From a virus (lineage: Duplodnaviria > Heunggongvirae > Uroviricota > Caudoviricetes), in the IMG/VR virus record IMGVR_UViG_2602041568_000006, positions 1 through 14,285 of that record: DNA of 14,285 nt; one strand, given 5' to 3'. This document shows, in pieces, positions 4,061-9,747 of the stretch. The notes below the pieces were generated by a model, which had not been told where the DNA came from, ran no database searches, and saw nothing but the letters and a program-made list of their open reading frames with translations. Within the stretch, counting starts at the first letter, position 1; each line of letters begins with the position of its first letter. The translations under genes and the position numbers were made by a program.

Positions 4061-4281
4061 GCTGCACCTCCGAGATGCTTCATGTTTTTTCCGGAGCGAA
4101 AGGCTATAAGCGGCATACTGACGCGGTAATTACGGCCCAGCGGTTCACAAATCACCTTCTGACATTCACGGTCAACCAGGCTAACACGTAGAACATGCCC
4201 TGCAGGCGTGGTGTACCACTGACCCGGACGAGGACAACGGAAAGTCTGATTGGTAAAACGTTTGAAAATATTCCGGATCAT
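4057..4281 (-). CDS. Hypothetical 74-aa basic protein, translationally coupled within the replication operon
   Basis: ATGA overlaps with the upstream gene (4278-4281) and downstream gene (4057-4060). No family recognised. Confidence 0.45.
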   Translation of the reverse strand: MIRNIFKRFTNQTFRCPRPGQWYTTPAGHVLRVSLVDRECQKVICEPLGRNYRVSMPLIAFRSGKNMKHLGGAA

Positions 4282-5426
4282 TTGCGCCCCCTTACCTCTG
4301 AAGGGTTCAGCGACAAATTTATGAGGCAGGCCAGCGCCGAAGCATCATTAATATAGTCATATAAGCTAACAGCCAGCGGAGATTCGGCTTTTGCCAACAT
4401 AGGATAAAGCTGCTGCAGCCAGACCTGATGAATTGATGAAATGTAGGAACAGAGAACGCTGGCGTTATGTGCAACGTCGCTCGGTACAGCGGGCTTTGAA
4501 AGCTGTTTCTCCATCTGGTTAAAGGCATTGATGTATGCCTCTTTGAACTGGGCAGCACGTTTACCCGTGAAACCCATAGCAAGAAACGCAAAGCCGTCGC
4601 GGGTTATTTGATAGCAAGGTAGTTTGCGGCCTGATGCGTCGATGTACTCACTGAGCTGGAAATTCAGCTCAGTAAATTCGGCAGAGCATTCAAGAGACGC
4701 AATTTTTTGAATGACGTTTTTGTGTTGTTTGCCGAAATAACTAGCAACAGCCAGAGAAGAAGTAACAACTTTGTCTGCAATAATGCAAAGTTCAGGTTGA
4801 ACTAAGGCAGGGATCGTAGCCATGATGGCAGCCTCCGTATGCAATGGATAACTTCCACCACCGGAAACGCCAATTTCGCTGGTGGTGAACTGAGCAGGGT
4901 TGGCGTAACCGGCGCATACGGAAACCGGCGCACCTTTCGGTGCCCCCACCCAGCCCACCATAATTTGGGTATAGCTGAGTTGTAGCAACAAAAAAGACGC
5001 TAACGCGCCAATTGTCGCCGTATGCAATTCCAGGACGCCAATCCCGGCACCCGCTTTATAAGGTGCCTGAACAGTGTAACGTCCCGGAATGGCAGAATCA
5101 ATGTGCTGGTGGTCCTTCACACTCAACAAAATCACGCCTGAATTTCCACAAAGGACTAAAGCACTCATGCGGGTAGTCTTTGCGAAGATAGATAACGCGC
5201 TGTGTTTCTGGCTCCCAACGAATAACATGAACATAAAGTCCTCTTCCGTCACGAAACCAGCGGTTAAGTTCCTGCACAACTCGCCCCCCACAGTCAGGTA
5301 AAGTTCTCTGTGGTTACTTACAGCCAGGTGATTTGGTAATCTGCATTCATGCCGTAACAACAGGTGTGCAGCGACACTGACCACCAGCTGTTGCGACAAA
5401 CGGTTATTTGCCGTTAAACTGTTCAT
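4278..5426 (-). CDS. Rha-family phage regulatory protein; Rha domain begins at internal Met (ATG 4823, GGAGG SD) after an uncharacterised ~200-codon in-frame N-terminal extension
   Basis: Continuous 382-codon ORF. Residues 202-290 (MATIPALVQPELCIIADKVVTSSLAVASYFGKQHKNVIQKI...EFTELNFQ...RDGFAFLAMGFTGKRAAQFKEAYINAFNQME) match the Phage_pRha pattern. A strong GGAGG lies 8 nt upstream of the internal ATG at 4823. The N-terminal 200 aa are A/G/S/L/V/H-rich and poorly charged. The 5426 ATG overlaps the upstream stop as ATGA. Confidence 0.5.
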   Translation of the reverse strand: MNSLTANNRLSQQLVVSVAAHLLLRHECRLPNHLAVSNHRELYLTVGGELCRNLTAGFVTEEDFMFMLFVGSQKHSALSIFAKTTRMSALVLCGNSGVILLSVKDHQHIDSAIPGRYTVQAPYKAGAGIGVLELHTATIGALASFLLLQLSYTQIMVGWVGAPKGAPVSVCAGYANPAQFTTSEIGVSGGGSYPLHTEAAIMATIPALVQPELCIIADKVVTSSLAVASYFGKQHKNVIQKIASLECSAEFTELNFQLSEYIDASGRKLPCYQITRDGFAFLAMGFTGKRAAQFKEAYINAFNQMEKQLSKPAVPSDVAHNASVLCSYISSIHQVWLQQLYPMLAKAESPLAVSLYDYINDASALACLINLSLNPSEVRGRK

Positions 5427-6058
5427 GCGTTAGTTTCTCCACAGACACAAAACGCCACGACGCCCGGAGCTGCACACTCGCGGGCGTTACTCTTTTCCGG
5501 CGCACAAAAAACACGAAATAACAGTGTTAAATGCTCCTGCCACTTCGCCATTACTTGGTAGCTGTTCTCTTCGATTTGCTCACGCTCAGCTTGGTCAATA
5601 ACTCCATCAGCAGTTGCCTTGCGTAAGTACTGGGAATGCTTGCCAATCCATTCTATTGACTCCATCAGCCGCTGATTAATGTCACCATTGTCAATATCAT
5701 CAATGACCACCAGCGGCACAAACACCCCATTACTACGACGGGCTATTGCATCCGTTACATGCCTGGTACCACTGGCATCCTGTAAAACCATGGCCCACTC
5801 AAGTGGAAAAATTTGATCCCCACCGCTACGCAGTCTGTTATGCAATTGATCTTTTGCTGGGGTGATATCATCAGATTTATACAAACCAAGAATTTCTGCT
5901 GCTTCCTCATAGCCATGAGGTAAATCAGCAATCGTTCTTCGTATTGCTGCCACCAGCCATGCTGGTTGCTTATCAACTTTCCATTCAGGTTCTTTACCCA
6001 CGTTTAAGCCCTCATATCTGTGGTTTCTGTAAATCGATTTATCCATTAGATTTTTCAT
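5423..6058 (-). CDS. CII-like / YdaT-family early regulatory protein (position-based assignment)
   Basis: ORF immediately downstream of the Cro-like gene. The track start at 6115 is GTG; in-frame ATGs at 6058 (MKNLMDKS) and 6046 are more plausible and overlap the 3' end of cro. Function is inferred from position in the operon, not from motifs. Confidence 0.45.
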   Translation of the reverse strand: MKNLMDKSIYRNHRYEGLNVGKEPEWKVDKQPAWLVAAIRRTIADLPHGYEEAAEILGLYKSDDITPAKDQLHNRLRSGGDQIFPLEWAMVLQDASGTRHVTDAIARRSNGVFVPLVVIDDIDNGDINQRLMESIEWIGKHSQYLRKATADGVIDQAEREQIEENSYQVMAKWQEHLTLLFRVFCAPEKSNARECAAPGVVAFCVCGETNA

Positions 6059-6239
6059 AAAGCTCAGGTTTAAATGGCAACCGTCCGCAAGTTCTATATG
6101 CAGCCTCTGCTGCACGTCCTTTTGGAATTAACTGGCCAGGACGGTTTCGCCACTGATAAACGGCTTCAGTTGTTATGCCGAAAAAAGCAGCAACTTTCTC
6201 AATGCTGCCGAAGTAGCTTTCGATATCGTCAGTCGTCAT
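6039..6239 (-). CDS. Cro-like HTH repressor (YdaS/Cro family)
   Basis: 66-aa ORF divergent from the cI-like gene. Contains an HTH-like segment (IEKVAAFFGITTEAVYQWRNR) and has a GGAGG(G) SD just upstream of ATG 6239. Confidence 0.7.
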   Translation of the reverse strand: MTTDDIESYFGSIEKVAAFFGITTEAVYQWRNRPGQLIPKGRAAEAAYRTCGRLPFKPELYEKSNG

Positions 6240-6250
6240 ATGCCCTCCAA

Positions 6251-6315
6251 ACTAAGTTTTATTAGATGTTAATTATCAATCTATCTTAGGTCAATAAAAA
6301 CTAAGATTACTTAGT
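6251..6315. promoter_or_regulatory. OR-like tripartite operator between cro and cI: 16-bp sites of the ACTAAG-N4-CTTAGT family
   Basis: Sites at 6251-6266 (ACTAAGTTTTATTAGA), 6275-6290 (degenerate, ATCAATCTATCTTAGG) and 6300-6315 (ACTAAGATTACTTAGT, perfect 6-bp arms), spaced about 24-25 bp centre to centre as in lambda OR1-3. Confidence 0.45.
6266..6294 (-). promoter_or_regulatory. Candidate pR-like sigma70 promoter for cro (TTGACC-N17-TAACAT on the minus strand)
   Basis: -35 TTGACC at 6294-6289 and -10 TAACAT at 6271-6266 with a 17-bp spacer; overlapped by the operator half-sites. Confidence 0.35.
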
Positions 6316-6336: not shown

Positions 6337-6963
6337 ATGGAAACGGTTGGTCAGCGTATAAAAGCTCTGAGAAGAGTTACCAGAACGTCCCAGAAAGAAT
6401 TGGGTAAATTTTGTGGAGTAAGTGACGTTGCTGTGGGGTACTGGGAGAAAGACATCAATGTCCCTGGTGGGGAAGCACTTTCAAAATTAGCGAAGTTCTT
6501 CAATACGTCAATAGATTACATTCTTTATGGTGCGGAGTTTGAAGGCAAACTCGTCACAAACATGCGCAGAGTTCCTGTAATCTCGTGGGTTCAGGCTGGG
6601 CAGTTTACTGAGTGCAGGACAGCAGAAGTGTTTAGTGAAGTAGACAAGTGGGTAGATACATCATTAAAGATTGGTGATAACTCATTTGCATTGGAGGTTA
6701 AAGGCGACTCCATGACTAACCCTAACGGCCTCCCAACAATACCAGAAGGCGCAACAGTGATTGTAGATCCTGATGCAGAACCCCGGCATGGAAAAATAGT
6801 CATCGCTAGACTTGATGGAACAAACGAAGCCACAGTAAAAAAATTAGTTATCGATGGCCCTCAAAAGTTTTTAGTGCCATTAAATCCCCGGTACCCCAAC
6901 ATCCCGATCAATGGTAATTGCCTCATCATTGGTGTAGTCAAAGGAGTTCAATACGAACTCTAG
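6337..6963 (+). CDS. CI-like prophage repressor (N-terminal XRE HTH, C-terminal S24 LexA-like autopeptidase domain)
   Basis: 208-aa ORF. N-terminal HTH (QRIKALRRVTRTSQKELGKFCGVSDVAVGYWEK) and C-terminal S24 motifs (GDSMTNP...; VKKL Lys). No obvious SD, suggesting a leaderless or poorly translated mRNA as for lambda cI. Confidence 0.85.
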   Translation: METVGQRIKALRRVTRTSQKELGKFCGVSDVAVGYWEKDINVPGGEALSKLAKFFNTSIDYILYGAEFEGKLVTNMRRVPVISWVQAGQFTECRTAEVFSEVDKWVDTSLKIGDNSFALEVKGDSMTNPNGLPTIPEGATVIVDPDAEPRHGKIVIARLDGTNEATVKKLVIDGPQKFLVPLNPRYPNIPINGNCLIIGVVKGVQYEL

Positions 6964-6991
6964 CCCCCCTTTTCTCTAACCAAAACACCGA

Positions 6992-7045
6992 ACTAAGAAA
7001 AGTTTGGTGTTTTCTCTTGCCATCAAAACTAAGTTAAGTTAGATT
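6992..7045 (+). promoter_or_regulatory. Operator-like sites downstream of cI (ACTAAGAAAAGTTTGG, ACTAAGTTAAGTTAGA) with a possible TTGCCA-N17-TAGATT promoter: candidate OL/pL
   Basis: Sites at 6992-7007 and 7028-7043 share the ACTAAG half-site with the OR sites. Possible -35 TTGCCA at 7017-7022 and -10 TAGATT at 7040-7045. Confidence 0.3.
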
Positions 7046-7117
7046 TTATATCAAAGATAACGAACAGGCAGGACGCCCACGAAGTAGCCGCCGGTGGCGG
7101 GATGATTCGTTAGCAAC

Positions 7118-7154
7118 AAAAAAGCGCCCTACAGGACGCTTTGCTCTTTAAAAA
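7118..7154. terminator. Hairpin with minus-strand U-tract (terminator for the 7308-7802 gene), abutting a boxA-like TGCTCTTTAAAAA on the plus strand
   Basis: Stem 7124-7129 / 7134-7139 with loop TACA. On the minus strand it forms 6 bp including one G-U and is followed by UUUUUU (complement of 7118-7123). On the plus strand the stem has a C-A mismatch and is followed by TTGCTCTTTAAAAA (7141-7154). Confidence 0.5.
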
Positions 7155-7307
7155 TCAGTAACCCTCACTTTGGGCCTGGACCTGGTGGCCTGGGACGAGG
7201 AGGAATATGAAAAGGCTCTATTGGTCGACTCATTATCCAATCCTATTATGTCTCATTTCTTCGGTTTCGGTGGTTTCGGCTTCGGAGGTACATGTCCGTG
7301 AACTGGA

Positions 7308-7802
7308 TTATGCTTGTTGGTCATCATTAATATCCGTTAGTTCATTCTCTAGAGGTAGATCTCCCGCACACCAAGCTATAAATTTTTCTTTGGTTGTTAA
7401 ATCGTACTTAGTTGGAACACCAGCAAAAATACAGGCCCGAATGAAAGCCGCTCGTTCAAGTGATTTCCATGGATTACTATCAGTATCTTGGATTTTTAAA
7501 TACCTAGCTTGCAACTGATCTTCAGGAAGGGTATCAGACTCAATCAGCAGTCTTTTGTAATGCCTCGCTTGCTCTTTAGACATTCCAGCCTCCTGGCCAA
7601 ACTGATAGACCAACTGAAGAACCGAAAGTACGGCAACAAACAAACCGAAAATAAATAAATTACTGTACGGGGCGAAAACTGAAAAACCGAGAACGATTAA
7701 CATCAACGTTATTAATTTATCAATGCGAGTTAACAACGTGTAATTCATCTTCTCCAATACATAAGAGTAGTGAACATAAAATTTATAATCGTCTCTGGTC
7801 AT
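7308..7802 (-). CDS. AT-rich membrane protein with an N-terminal two-helix hairpin and soluble acidic C-terminal domain; candidate superinfection-exclusion/abortive-infection moron
   Basis: 164-aa ORF with two predicted TM helices (LITLMLIVLGFSVFAPY, LFIFGLFVAVLSVLQLVYQF). AT-rich third codon positions, own orientation opposite to the flanking genes, and a downstream minus-strand terminator at 7118-7139. Overlaps the antisense plus ORF 7207-7518. Confidence 0.5.
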   Translation of the reverse strand: MTRDDYKFYVHYSYVLEKMNYTLLTRIDKLITLMLIVLGFSVFAPYSNLFIFGLFVAVLSVLQLVYQFGQEAGMSKEQARHYKRLLIESDTLPEDQLQARYLKIQDTDSNPWKSLERAAFIRACIFAGVPTKYDLTTKEKFIAWCAGDLPLENELTDINDDQQA

Positions 7803-7901
7803 ATTAGTCTCAGTTTTCCTTGGGTGGTTTTGGAGGAACTGGAGGCTTTTGTCTTAACGGCACATGCCTCTCCTCATACTTATCTACACATAGATCCATA
7901 T

Positions 7902-7958
7902 AAATCCTTATCGTTGTTGGGGAGGGTTACATAATAACCAAATCCTTGTTGTTGGGGA
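7902..7958. repeat. Direct repeat AAATCCTT(ATC)GTTGTTGGGGA, two copies about 38 bp apart, in the non-coding region upstream of the early-left genes
   Basis: Copies at 7902-7923 and 7940-7958, identical apart from a 3-nt insertion. Confidence 0.5.
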
Positions 7959-8185
7959 ATAACCAGGTCCACCTCGCCTGATGTGGCTAAAAGCAGGCAC
8001 ATAACAGCTAAGTATTTTCAACCAGAGAGAATCCTTAGCGTTGTGGTGAATGCGGCTCAGCGCACGCGGGTTAAGGTTGAGGCTGACAGTCGACCTTCTG
8101 TGGATACCCACCCGCCTGGTGTGCAACCTTCGCCAGGCACCGGGAGGCACCCGGCACCACAACTTTATGCTGTGTGTAGTCCTGG

Positions 8186-8231
8186 CGGTACCAGTTTGTA
8201 CCCTTGCTTCCGGCTGGTACCGTCCTTTTTA
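8186..8231 (+). terminator. Terminator-like hairpin (9-bp stem CGGTACCAG / CTGGTACCG, then TCCTTTTT) within the GC-rich leader upstream of the yfdP-like gene
   Basis: Perfect inverted repeat 8186-8194 / 8214-8222 with a 19-nt loop, followed by a T-run at 8225-8230. Other GC hairpins lie at 8074-8096 and 8140-8154. Confidence 0.35.
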
Positions 8232-8367
8232 CAAAACAGAGAAGAGCATCACCGGACGACGGGCTCATAACCCAATCCATCCGGGCGGCTGCCACCGCAG
8301 GTGTTCTTCTCTGTTTTGTGGAGAAACTAATCGGCCTTGCAGGGTCGATATGATGAGGAGCAGCAAA

Positions 8368-8730
8368 ATGGCTAGCGAACGCAGTACTGATGTGCAGGCA
8401 TTTATCGGGGAGCTGGACGGCGGCGTATTTGAAACCAAAATCGGCGCAGTTCTCAGTGAAGTCGCTTCCGGTGTGATGAACACGAAAACCAAAGGTAAGG
8501 TCTCACTCAACCTGGAAATCGAACCATTTGATGAGAACCGTGTGAAAATCAAACACAAACTCTCATATGTTCGCCCGACTAACCGTGGGAAAATTTCCGA
8601 AGAAGACACCACCGAAACGCCGATGTATGTCAATCGCGGTGGTCGCCTGACTATTCTGCAGGAAGACCAGGGACAATTACTGACTCTTGCCGGTGAGCCT
8701 GACGGAAAACTCCGCGCAGCAGGTCATTAA
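8368..8730 (+). CDS. yfdP: YfdP-like early-left prophage protein
   Basis: ATG at 8368 preceded by GAGGAG 7 nt upstream gives 120 aa, the length I recall for K-12 YfdP, and it is followed by the yfdQ/R/S-like genes in the same order. The upstream in-frame extension of the track ORF lies in a GC-rich structured region. Confidence 0.55.
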   Translation: MASERSTDVQAFIGELDGGVFETKIGAVLSEVASGVMNTKTKGKVSLNLEIEPFDENRVKIKHKLSYVRPTNRGKISEEDTTETPMYVNRGGRLTILQEDQGQLLTLAGEPDGKLRAAGH

Positions 8731-9620: not shown

Positions 9621-9747
9621 TTTCATTACTGCAAATGCCCCTGCGGGGGCATTTATGGAAACGTAATTTACTCAATAATCGCCGGATGGTGAGGGATTCT
9701 TTTTACCAGAATTCAGCGCGGTGCAGCGCATATACGTGGAGAACAAA

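Follow-up and report, generated by a model that had tools for sequence, protein, structure and literature searches.

A divergent STnc100/PasD-type RNA in the early-left leader of an SfV/ST64B/CPS-53-type lambdoid prophage

The 565-bp gap at positions 7803-8367 of an SfV/ST64B/CPS-53-type lambdoid prophage was found to carry a divergent structured RNA of the STnc100/PasD superfamily, a group known from prophages. It forms the untranslated leader of an early-left (PL-side) operon, yfdP-yfdQ-yfdR-...-xis-int. On balance it seems most likely, from the comparisons described here, that this leader would yield a discrete trans-acting small RNA (sRNA) of the Hfq type, with a terminator that would also limit read-through into yfdP. 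Positions refer to the window, the whole 14,285-nt stretch of DNA that was analysed, and its features are collected in Table 1.

Table 1 Features in and around the leader upstream of yfdP, with the evidence for each.
Feature	Position	Strand	Basis or remarks
PL candidate, TTGCCA-17-TAGATT	7017..7045	+	Sole sigma-70-like site in a scan of 6900-8500
boxA-like TGCTCTTTAAAAA	7142..7154	+	About 95 nt past the PL candidate; one mismatch to the rrn boxA TGCTCTTTAACAA
Two imperfect direct repeats	7902..7958 (7902-7923, 7940-7958)	+	Repeat search and direct reading
Conserved 38-mer CCACCTCGCCTGATGTGGCTAAAAGCAGGCACATAACA	7969..8006	+	97% identical in Cronobacter phage phiES15
5' hairpin GCUAAG...CUUAGC before the core	8007..8039	+	Minimum-free-energy fold; equivalent of the 5' leader in the Rfam model of STnc100
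STnc100/PasD-superfamily core	8039..8164	+	Rfam and own covariance models, covariation
Single-stranded linker UUUAUGCUGUGUGUAGUCCU, candidate seed region	8164..8183	+	Conservation
Intrinsic terminator	8184..8230	+	Stem 8184-8196 with 8212-8224, U5 at 8226-8230; folds
Long near-perfect hairpin of about 25 bp	8226..8324	+	Inverted repeat with 25-nt arms; includes the terminator U-tract
yfdP ribosome-binding site GAGGAG (8355-8360) and start codon (8368-8370)	8355..8370	+	Direct reading

Results

The leader and its non-coding status

The gap is the exact interval between the start of the minus-strand ORF 7308-7802, a 164-aa gene that forms its left border, and the yfdP ATG. Further to the left lie cI (6337-6963), cro (6039-6239), a cII-like gene and a Rha-type gene, and to the right yfdP and yfdQ, YfdP matching phrog_204 at 1e-49. 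This layout agrees with those of SfIV, ST64B and an E. coli prophage adjoining tRNA-Thr.

The earlier note, made from the sequence alone, had described the interval as a 565-bp non-coding leader, and comparison with ST64B and 118970_sal3 bore this out. Mismatches in the leader are spread evenly over the codon phases (19/21/22) and its gaps are mostly not multiples of three bases, whereas the neighbouring yfdP coding sequence displays a coding signature (20/26/67). ORFs 7983-8270, 8050-8367 and 7770-7934 inside the gap matched no Pfam or PHROG family, and ORF 8050-8367 is an N-terminal extension of yfdP. A protein-coding region, such as the 226-aa ORF 8050-8730 or the frameshifted 'hypothetical protein' of RefSeq, would be in keeping with the several frames that are open across the gap and with the annotation of SfIV_34, SfIV_35 and one PGAP pseudogene over the region, the 226-aa ORF being a long form of the yfdP homologue in the SfIV annotation (SfIV_34). 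However, the core RNA described below has covarying helices and occurs upstream of unrelated genes in other frames, and coding frames in the gap were ruled out by the codon-phase, indel and Pfam/PHROG tests, such that the probability of a coding region here is negligible.

Identity and fold of the core RNA

An Rfam/Infernal scan returned a match to STnc100 (RF02076) of 43.1 bits (E = 8.3e-8), covering model positions 1-206 of 206 and window positions 8010-8232 (+). This score is just under the 47-bit gathering threshold of the family, and the window is absent from a scan at that threshold. Canonical copies in the same loci clear the cut-off with 76.6-132 bits. STnc100 was the sole convincing family, the next best match having E = 0.28. 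Two covariance models of our own were also applied. Model R2, which was built from 36 canonical cores (H1 of the CCCCCU type) and includes none of the window's subfamily, gave 75.1 bits (E = 1.1e-16); model R1 gave 82.2 bits, with the window belonging to its seed. A weak R1 match at 9624-9731 (13 bits) was dismissed as noise since its fold is not significant (z = -1.8), and ARAGORN found no tRNA-like gene in the window.

The core is closed by P1, in which 8040-8048 pairs with 8155-8163, followed by the junction AAU. Within this frame are H1 (8052-8067), P2 (8068-8070 with 8111-8113), H4 (8114-8121 with 8131-8138) and H5 (8140-8154), and a pseudoknot is formed between AAGGUUG (8073-8079) and CAACCUU (8124-8130). 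The earlier note had claimed at least two GC stems here besides the T-run hairpin; these were confirmed and extended to five helices.

Covariation, which the same note had named among the checks on its structured block, disclosed a conserved structure. Across 121 distinct relatives, 95.4% of cells pair and compensatory changes on both sides occur in 22 of the 26 pairs; none of 500 shuffles reached the observed values, and slid controls paired at 38-45%. In a separate MAFFT alignment 15 of the 26 pairs were compensatory. The pseudoknot was represented by 61 distinct helix sequences, true partners forming 5.55 bp on average as against 4.07 bp for mismatched partners. From Escherichia to Pantoea, Erwinia and Rahnella the junctions have the same nucleotides throughout, whereas the helices covary, and in mEp460 the same P1 frame surrounds another insert. 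The core structure is specific to the + strand, the strand being fixed by G-U as the commonest pair at one H4 position; the fold of 8005-8240 has z = -4.3 on the + strand and -1.9 on the - strand.

In common with STnc100, PasD1/PasD2 and EcOnc27/sRNA103, Hfq-associated sRNAs from prophages of Salmonella, EPEC and EHEC, the window has the closing P1, the GAAU junction, H1 with a CUNNGCG loop, and H4. It also shares with RNAs of this type the invariant UCACCGGGAGGCACCCGGCAC hairpin, the full-length Rfam match, the linker followed by an intrinsic terminator, and the carriage by a prophage. It differs from them in H1, which reads GCGGCU... instead of CCCCCU..., in the Rfam score below 47 bits, and in its setting, as the core lies between cI/PL and yfdP in an early-left operon and not in the usual late region near Q, stx, esterase and lysis genes. 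The late-region location is a habit of the STnc100/PasD family, not its definition.

Sequences upstream of the core

The tandem direct repeat of 19-22 bp that had been reported upstream of the hairpins was recovered. Two repeats, AAATCCTTATCGTTGTTGGGGA (22 nt) and AAATCCTTGTTGTTGGGGA (19 nt), share the exact 11-mer GTTGTTGGGGA, but they start 38 bp apart and therefore are not strictly tandem. They are degenerate copies of the 5' flank of the core together with the 5' strand of P1 (compare 8030-8051), and a third partial copy at 8030-8044 forms the 5' edge of the structured RNA. Both recur, with variation, in SfIV. No significant fold was found for the segment 7803-8010 (z = -0.33).

The 38-mer that follows the repeats recurs in Salmonella phage 118970_sal3 and, in a Qin-like prophage, ahead of ydfC. 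It may serve for processing or may be a promoter of an unrecognised kind; the scan showed no sigma-70 consensus in it. Next to it is the 5' hairpin, within which the Rfam alignment begins. A promoter belonging to the core itself was sought and rejected, as the scan gave no sigma-70 site and the -10/-35 match of the 38-mer is poor by eye.

No sigma-70 promoter close upstream of the core was found in the scan of 6900-8500, and the PL candidate is the only promoter-like site able to feed the gap from the left. Operator-like sites at 6992-7007 and 7028-7043, overlapped by this candidate, resemble the perfect palindrome ACTAAG-N4-CTTAGT located between cro and cI (6300-6315). A transcript starting there would have to cross the antisense of the 164-aa gene and a hairpin at 7121-7142 before reaching the core, about 990 nt away. 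SfIV has AGCTCTTTAACAA at the place equivalent to the boxA-like site, after a different promoter; a boxA-like function of 7142-7154 is putative, judged from sequence likeness.

Linker, terminator and downstream hairpin

The linker motif UUGCUGUGUG(U/A)AGUC is shared by the window, ST64B, 118970_sal3 and phiES15, which have unrelated terminators: in phages of Escherichia, Salmonella and Cronobacter the linker is retained and the terminator varies. A search for a linker target within the window matched only its own site. From position 8183 on, the sequence recombines separately from the core.

The 9-bp perfect-stem hairpin with a T-run that had been noticed at first reading is part of the terminator stem, CGGTACCAG (8186-8194) with CTGGTACCG (8214-8222), and the stem extends to 11-13 bp ahead of the T5. 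The 5' arm weakly resembles DicF, with a 15-nt identity, TGGCGGTAYCAGTTT, in common with K-12 DicF. Membership of the DicF family was ruled out for this 3' hairpin: the Rfam model RF00039 gave 15.7 bits (E = 1.9) on 8171-8225, against a gathering threshold of 48 bits and 76.7 bits for true DicF.

Folding of 8160-8385 gave z = -5.6. ST64B, 118970_sal3 and mEp460 retain the stem of about 25 bp at 8226-8324, with a single compensatory change from G-C to A-U. In the yfdP 5' UTR of transcripts that read through, this stem is probably a site for processing of the RNase III type.

Distribution and settings of the relatives

The leader or parts of it were detected in 2781 of 5426 complete E. coli genomes, and in SfV, SfII, SfIV, ST64B and related phages. 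The K-12 CPS-53 prophage is without it; pawZ, a K-12 CPS-53 locus considered as a possible sRNA, is an annotated 15-bp pseudogene at the prophage end and irrelevant to the leader.

Where relatives have a terminator, the structured body is followed by a single-stranded, A/U-rich linker and then by a strong U-tailed hairpin. For 102 of the 162 unique family cores (about 63%) no terminator is present within 160 nt. Cores occur in back-to-back arrays with spacers of 8-30 nt; a Pantoea plasmid, for example, has two units of three cores each, and other loci have 4-6 copies. Some are placed directly before tRNA genes: in all 44 cases of a core less than 2 kb from a tRNA gene the two share one strand, and 8% of cores lie within 500 nt of such a gene compared with 3.7% of random positions, a modest enrichment.

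In the subfamily of the window, 27 of 49 unique cores have a dicB, kil or tciA start codon 28-33 nt downstream; 19 are 28 nt before dicB, 2 are 32 nt before tciA, and 6 precede kil (5 at 33 nt, 1 at 80 nt). E. coli K-12 Qin contains an unannotated core between dicF and dicB (locus L010, 2454-2583; 78 bits with R1, 66.6 bits with R2), and in P1 a core lies before tciA, downstream of an annotated 'dicF-like region' (locus L003, 2501-2626). The Qin dicBF leader and the P1 ban operon thus share with the window the core subfamily, a repressor-controlled early operon and an adjoining DicF-like element. In contrast to the window, the Qin and P1 cores are without a terminator of their own and end about 28-32 nt before the start codon. 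The order in Qin is DicF and then the core, whereas in the window the core comes first and is followed by the DicF-like hairpin, which is not a DicF member.

The antitermination question

Of the three functions offered by the earlier note, the sRNA agreed with the family and the layout; a put-like cis-acting antitermination RNA, which it named first, did not hold, and an attenuator of the riboswitch type proved unlikely. An RNA like those of HK022 would load onto RNA polymerase, allow it to pass terminators and replace N. The absence of a recognisable N-like gene between PL and yfdP was corroborated, since the ORFs in 7045-8368 match no protein family; the interval also includes at least two terminator-like hairpins, and the early-left operon leader contains a structured RNA. 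HK022 putL and putR and HK639 putL are likewise structured RNAs in early-operon leaders of lambdoid phages without N. However, the put signature GGCGGGYTCAGGAWGARCGGCAAT, derived from the extracted HK022 putL and putR and the annotated HK639 putL, gave no match in the whole window with up to 3 mismatches. The fold of the window, five helices and a pseudoknot over about 125 nt, differs from the two stems over about 70 nt of put. While put RNAs are located at the promoter or close to it, with one copy on the left and one on the right, the window has a single strong core and none on the PR side. This core does not open the transcript but lies about 990 nt from the PL candidate, and its own terminator follows directly. 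Models R1 and R2 had no match in the HK022 or HK639 immunity regions. Last, STnc100/PasD members also occur downstream of stx2 in Q-controlled late operons of phages having N (PMC12370729) and in arrays, settings that would make an antiterminator pointless. A put-like role is thus very improbable.

The conserved leader 7058-7115 just past PL had first been suspected to be put-like through the common pattern ACGAAC..GGCGGG..GAUGA. It was rejected, as it is without the put signature and its fold has z = -0.15.

In the lambda N leader, an RNase III-sensitive hairpin lies between nutL and the ribosome-binding site of N. The leader in the window has the same position, being the first long untranslated leader after PL, and likewise has a boxA-like element near the promoter and a long hairpin just upstream of the ribosome-binding site of the first gene. 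It differs in that it has no N gene and no recognised boxB of the lambda or P22 type, and the RNase III role proposed for 8226-8324 is conjectural.

Discussion

That the leader would produce an sRNA is supported by its superfamily membership, by the Hfq dependence of the studied members, and by its layout of structured body, linker and U-tailed terminator. PasD1 and PasD2 have been confirmed by Northern analysis, depend on Hfq for stability and are RIL-seq hubs (PMC8550237). EDL933 has 11 STnc100 copies, which are transcribed, one being confirmed by Northern analysis (PMC5331693), and EcOnc27/sRNA103 overlaps an STnc100 copy and binds Hfq (PMC12711010). A common ancestor of PasD and STnc100 has been proposed (bioRxiv 10.64898/2026.05.13.724894).

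By analogy with these relatives, transcription from the left would start at the PL candidate or at an unrecognised nearer promoter and would stop mostly at the U-tract, releasing a discrete RNA of about 190-220 nt. Hfq would stabilise this RNA, which would base-pair with targets in trans, the conserved linker being the most probable site of pairing. The terminator would also limit the transcription reaching yfdP, and the transcripts that read through it would carry the hairpin 8226-8324, probably being processed before yfdP translation.

Several observations run against this. No sigma-70-like promoter was found close upstream of the core, the PL candidate being about 990 nt off; most relatives are terminator-less and many are arrayed; and the search of the window disclosed no linker target. 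In addition, base-pairing sRNAs do not usually have a core with a pseudoknot and invariant junctions.

As most relatives have no terminator, are arrayed or precede dicB, kil or tciA by about 30 nt, the core may have a function of its own. It is possible, though we hold it with distinctly less confidence than the sRNA, that the 125-nt core is an autonomous functional domain for which the sRNA format is secondary. Temperate phages of Enterobacterales, and plasmids of the same order, would use such a domain in three ways: as a terminated sRNA like that of the window, in arrays, and as a 5'-UTR element about 30 nt before division inhibitors. It could bind a conserved host protein or ligand, or be a processing, stability or translation signal; in the window it would be a decoy or a cis-acting element of the PL transcript, and the terminator would be a late addition. 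This is consistent with the invariant junctions beside covarying helices, the conserved pseudoknot, the 102 terminator-less cores, the closely spaced arrays, the cores before tRNA genes and on their strand, and the mEp460 P1 frame with a different insert. The spacing before dicB (19 cores), kil (6) and tciA (2), 28-33 nt in 27 of 49, is easier to reconcile with a domain that is self-contained or acts in cis than with a simple sRNA scaffold. On the other hand, the studied members act as Hfq-dependent base-pairing sRNAs, no partner protein or ligand is known, and the proximity to tRNA genes is modest in excess. Moreover, the terminator and about 205 nt lie between the core and yfdP, hence the dicB/kil-type spacing is not kept in the window.

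It was also considered that the core senses a signal and decides whether the terminator 8184-8230 forms, gating yfdP-int as an attenuator or riboswitch. A structured domain immediately upstream of a terminator in a leader has this appearance, and downstream of the core some relatives have a terminator and others a ribosome-binding site, a pattern known from riboswitch classes. In the window the 3' arm of H4, CGCCAGG (8131-8137), is complementary to CCUGGCG (8182-8188) at the terminator base. This complementarity is not conserved in ST64B or phiES15, however, and inspection of 22 terminator-bearing relatives, with linkers of 8-45 nt, disclosed no systematic pairing with P1 or H5. The terminator segment recombines independently of the core, and no Rfam riboswitch family matched. 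As no conserved alternative pairing between the core and the varied terminators was seen in these relatives, a riboswitch expression platform is unlikely; the terminator must still attenuate read-through. The sRNA remains the function that we prefer for the leader.

In the E. coli genomes and phages that have it, the leader is unannotated or wrongly called protein-coding, and its STnc100-type identity corrects these annotations. In phages that have neither N nor put, PL transcription must pass a 1.3-kb untranslated leader containing terminators, and the boxA-like element near PL is a lead in this respect. The scope of the STnc100/PasD superfamily is widened from late-region cargo of pathogenic strains to immunity-proximal early operons of many temperate phages, and takes in P1 and the K-12 Qin dicBF operon. 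That these RNAs do more than base-pair is suggested by their conserved pseudoknotted fold, by the arrays and by the constant distance at which they precede division-inhibitor genes.

Genome context of the gap

The window comes from a lambdoid prophage of the SfV/SfIV/ST64B/CPS-53 type, of which it is the immunity and early region. The yfdP-yfdQ-yfdR operon continues in related elements to xis, int and the tRNA attachment site, and with cI and cro on the left and this operon on the right, the gap sits where lambda has nutL and N at its early-left position. The interval 7803-8367 extends precisely from the start of a minus-strand ORF for a 164-aa protein (7308-7802) to the yfdP ATG (8368-8370), and these 565 bp are non-coding, as the earlier note had held. 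The ORFs crossing the gap gave zero family matches in Pfam and PHROG, while the neighbouring proteins do match (YfdP, phrog_204, 1e-49; YfdQ, DUF2303, 8e-93). With ST64B and 118970_sal3, two Salmonella phages at 74% identity, as the reference, mismatches in the gap are even over the codon phases (19/21/22) and alignment gaps in the leader are mostly of 1-2 bases, whereas the adjacent yfdP sequence displays a coding pattern (20/26/67).

Features of the region (window coordinates)
Feature	Position	Strand	Remark
CII-like gene and Rha/Ant-type gene	farther left than cro and cI
cro	6039-6239	-	P22_Cro
cI	6337-6963	+	HTH plus peptidase S24
ORF crossing the gap	7770-7934
ORF crossing the gap	7983-8270
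ORF crossing the gap	8050-8367		yfdP N-terminal extension
P1	8040-8048 with 8155-8163	+	closes the domain; followed by GAAU junction
H1	8052-8067	+	loop of CUNNGCG type
P2		+	3-bp helix enclosing a variable insert
H4	8114-8121 with 8131-8138	+
H5	8140-8154	+	invariant hairpin CCGGG-AGGCA-CCCGG, abutting the P1 3' strand
Terminator	8184-8230	+	strong
yfdP, yfdQ, yfdR and so on	right of the gap

A promoter scan of 6900-8500 found one sigma-70-like promoter, TTGCCA-17-TAGATT at 7017-7045, directly after cI and overlapping operator-like sites akin to a perfect palindrome between cro and cI, ACTAAG-N4-CTTAGT. On this sequence evidence it is taken as the candidate early-left promoter, PL. If so, about 1.3 kb of untranslated RNA would precede yfdP, and the transcript would cross the 164-aa gene in antisense together with the terminator hairpin of that gene (7121-7142). 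On the 3' side of this hairpin, about 95 nt past the candidate PL, lies a boxA-like sequence, TGCTCTTTAAAAA (7142-7154, + strand), with one mismatch to rrn boxA; SfIV has AGCTCTTTAACAA at the equivalent position.

Several other elements were observed in this region. Just 3' of the candidate PL, the segment 7058-7115, especially 7061-7098 (+ strand, ACGAACAGGCAGGACGCCCACGAAGTAGCCGCCGGTGG), shows 92-100% identity across Salmonella, Shigella, Yersinia, Citrobacter and Pectobacterium phages despite differing operators and promoters; it displayed neither a put signature nor a significant fold. The 164-aa protein (phrog_6315), hydrophobic in appearance as judged by eye, is encoded by a gene inserted between the candidate PL and the conserved leader, where other phages have different minus-strand genes, and it is overlapped by a plus-strand ORF (7207-7518) with a strong ribosome-binding site and no family match. 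A C4 antisense RNA and an isrK-like RNA exceed their Rfam cut-offs, with 80.7 and 61.2 bits, at 4878-5066 (- strand), directly 5' of the Rha/Ant-type regulator gene (ORF 4278-4790, - strand) of the PR-side operon. Together with that gene they look like a c4/antirepressor module of the P1 immI type, and ST64B carries the same RNA pair.

Identification of the RNA family

A relaxed Rfam scan, a check recommended in the earlier note, gave as its sole convincing match STnc100 (RF02076) on 8010-8232 (+ strand), over the whole model length, with 43.1 bits and E 8e-8, covariance-model E-values being rough. As this score is just below the 47-bit cut-off, the match is missed by a standard gathering-threshold scan. 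To gather relatives of the core, a domain of about 125 nt at 8039-8164, IMG/VR and one genome for each species were searched with CACCNGGARGCACCNGGCAC, the best-conserved motif of its 3' part. The motif occurred at 272 sites, 209 of which (162 unique) also had GGTGAAT 74-111 nt upstream; hosts include Escherichia, Salmonella, Citrobacter, Enterobacter, Klebsiella, Kosakonia, Pantoea, Erwinia, Rahnella and others.

Two covariance models were built from these cores. R1, from 50 diverse cores, gave 82 bits on the window by construction, since the window is in its seed. R2 serves as the independent test: its 36 cores all carry the canonical CCCCCU-type H1 and leave out the subfamily of the window, and it still gave 75.1 bits on the window (E 1e-16, a rough value). 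Canonical copies at the same loci score 76.6-132 bits, above the Rfam cut-off, and thus membership of the block in the STnc100/PasD superfamily is secure.

Gathering by motif overlooks more divergent relatives, such as the variant RNA of mEp460 (2854-2990 of its locus, L009; 27 bits with R1). It occupies the same slot within the same P1 frame, GUUGUGGUG...CACCACAAC, with a different internal RNA whose hairpins are H1-like and H5-like but differ in sequence, and is followed by the same terminator and yfdP leader.

Fold of the core

The GC-rich multi-hairpin block described earlier was confirmed. The plus strand of 8005-8240 is much more stably folded than its shuffles (z = -4.3), unlike the minus strand (z = -1.9); 8160-8385 gave z = -5.6, while the left third of the gap (7803-8010) had no significant fold (z = -0.33). 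Covariation evidence for the fold, another check recommended there, is strong. Among 121 distinct relatives, in an alignment fitted to the model's structure and hence with pair counts biased towards it, 95.4% of cells pair and 22 of the 26 pairs change on both sides; none of 500 shuffles reached these values, and slid partners pair at 38-45%. An independent MAFFT alignment analysed with RNAalifold returned the same helices, 15 of 26 pairs being compensatory. At one H4 position the pair seen most often is G-U, which places the structure on the plus strand.

The core also contains a pseudoknot, in which the segment directly after H1 pairs with the H4 loop (in the window AAGGUUG, 8073-8079, with CAACCUU, 8124-8130). 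In 160 cores, with 61 different helix sequences, a custom script found the longest helix to average 5.55 bp for true partners versus 4.07 bp for mismatched ones.

Flanking parts of the leader

Two imperfect direct repeats, of 22 nt (7902-7923) and 19 nt (7940-7958), do occur upstream of the core; the earlier note had called them tandem, but they are 38 bp apart and so not strictly tandem. They are degenerate copies of the core's 5' flank and the 5' strand of P1 (compare AATCCTTAGCGTTGTGGTGAAT at 8030-8051), and from their sequence look like stubs left by core-core recombination. Mosaic joints at about 7905, 7969 and 8183 show that pieces of the leader recombine as modules. Between the repeats and the core, the 38-mer CCACCTCGCCTGATGTGGCTAAAAGCAGGCACATAACA (7969-8006, + strand) has no good sigma-70 consensus; it matches Cronobacter phage phiES15 at 97% identity and is also found upstream of ydfC in a Qin-like prophage (locus coordinates L005 2896-2933, L008 1680-1711).

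The core is followed by a single-stranded linker of about 20 nt, whose centre, UUGCUGUGUG(U/A)AGUC, is kept in E. coli, Salmonella and Cronobacter phages though the downstream terminators are unrelated. Next comes the predicted perfect-stem hairpin with T-run, CGGTACCAG/CTGGTACCG and T5 at 8186-8230. The 5' arm of this terminator has 15 nt in common with DicF, but DicF membership was rejected (15.7 bits against a 48-bit cut-off). The terminator U-tract is the first part of a long hairpin of about 25 bp (8226-8324), which ends 30 nt 5' of the yfdP ribosome-binding site and is conserved in ST64B, 118970_sal3 and mEp460 with one compensatory change.

Proposed function of the leader RNA

The earlier note had suggested a put-like antitermination RNA, an attenuator or an sRNA. 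A common signature was derived from HK022 putL and putR and the annotated HK639 "putL-like antiterminator RNA"; it was not found in the window with up to three mismatches allowed, and the window RNA is unlike these elements in how it folds, how large it is, how many copies occur and how far it lies from the promoter. Scans of the HK022 and HK639 immunity regions with R1 and R2 found nothing. Other members of the family lie 3' of stx2, in late operons under Q control (PMC12370729, PMC12711010), or in arrays of cores, places where an antiterminator would be purposeless. An attenuator or riboswitch is unlikely: terminator-bearing relatives have linkers of 8-45 nt, inspection showed no systematic pairing of linker or terminator with the core, and the sole such complementarity of the window is not kept in ST64B or phiES15.

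Published work on relatives describes discrete RNAs and Hfq-associated sRNAs (PMC8550237, PMC5331693, PMC12711010; bioRxiv 10.64898/2026.05.13.724894), and the window has the standard sRNA layout of body, linker, terminator and U-tail. Our analysis therefore supports the sRNA alternative and not the put-like one. Transcription from the left would end mostly at 8226-8230, releasing an RNA of about 190-220 nt that would act in trans with Hfq, probably via the conserved linker. The terminator would at the same time throttle entry into yfdP-...-int, and read-through transcripts may be processed at the long hairpin. More speculatively, the boxA-like sequence may shield the 1.3-kb untranslated PL leader from Rho by Nus-factor protection.

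Not everything about the core fits a plain sRNA; together with its invariant junction nucleotides, its distribution makes a function of the core itself a possible reading. Of the unique cores, about 63% lack a terminator within 160 nt, and several loci carry 3-6 back-to-back cores with spacers of 8-30 nt (L070, L108, L120, L054, L101, L129, L143); in Pantoea sp. plasmid pAPP145_2 (L070 948-1990) two three-core units are each closed by one terminator. Some cores are directly 5' of tRNA genes; wherever a tRNA gene lies within 2 kb of a core, the two share a strand (44 of 44 cores), and at L129 the two are interleaved, one core ending 8 nt before a tRNA-Met gene. Within the window's subfamily, in which H1 is non-canonical, 27 of 49 unique cores lie in front of one of three genes: dicB at a spacing of 28 nt, tciA at 32 nt, or kil, where the spacing is 33 nt in five cases and 80 nt in one.

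Among these is an unannotated core in Qin of E. coli K-12 MG1655 (L010 2454-2583; R1 78, R2 67 and Rfam 34 bits), which runs from 20 nt past dicF to 28 nt upstream of the start codon of dicB and goes unmentioned in the examined papers on dicBF and PasD/STnc100. In the C1-controlled ban operon of P1 (L003 2501-2626), a core of the window's subfamily ends about 32 nt before tciA, likewise in SJ46 (L007 3001-3126); in P1-like plasmid prophages the core is downstream of an annotated "dicF-like region" and tRNA genes.

Overall, the window holds a diverged member of a known family at an unusual location and not a new kind of system. Its recognition improves annotation and widens the range of the family to include early operons, Qin of K-12 and P1, with a complexity of the core that a plain sRNA does not explain.
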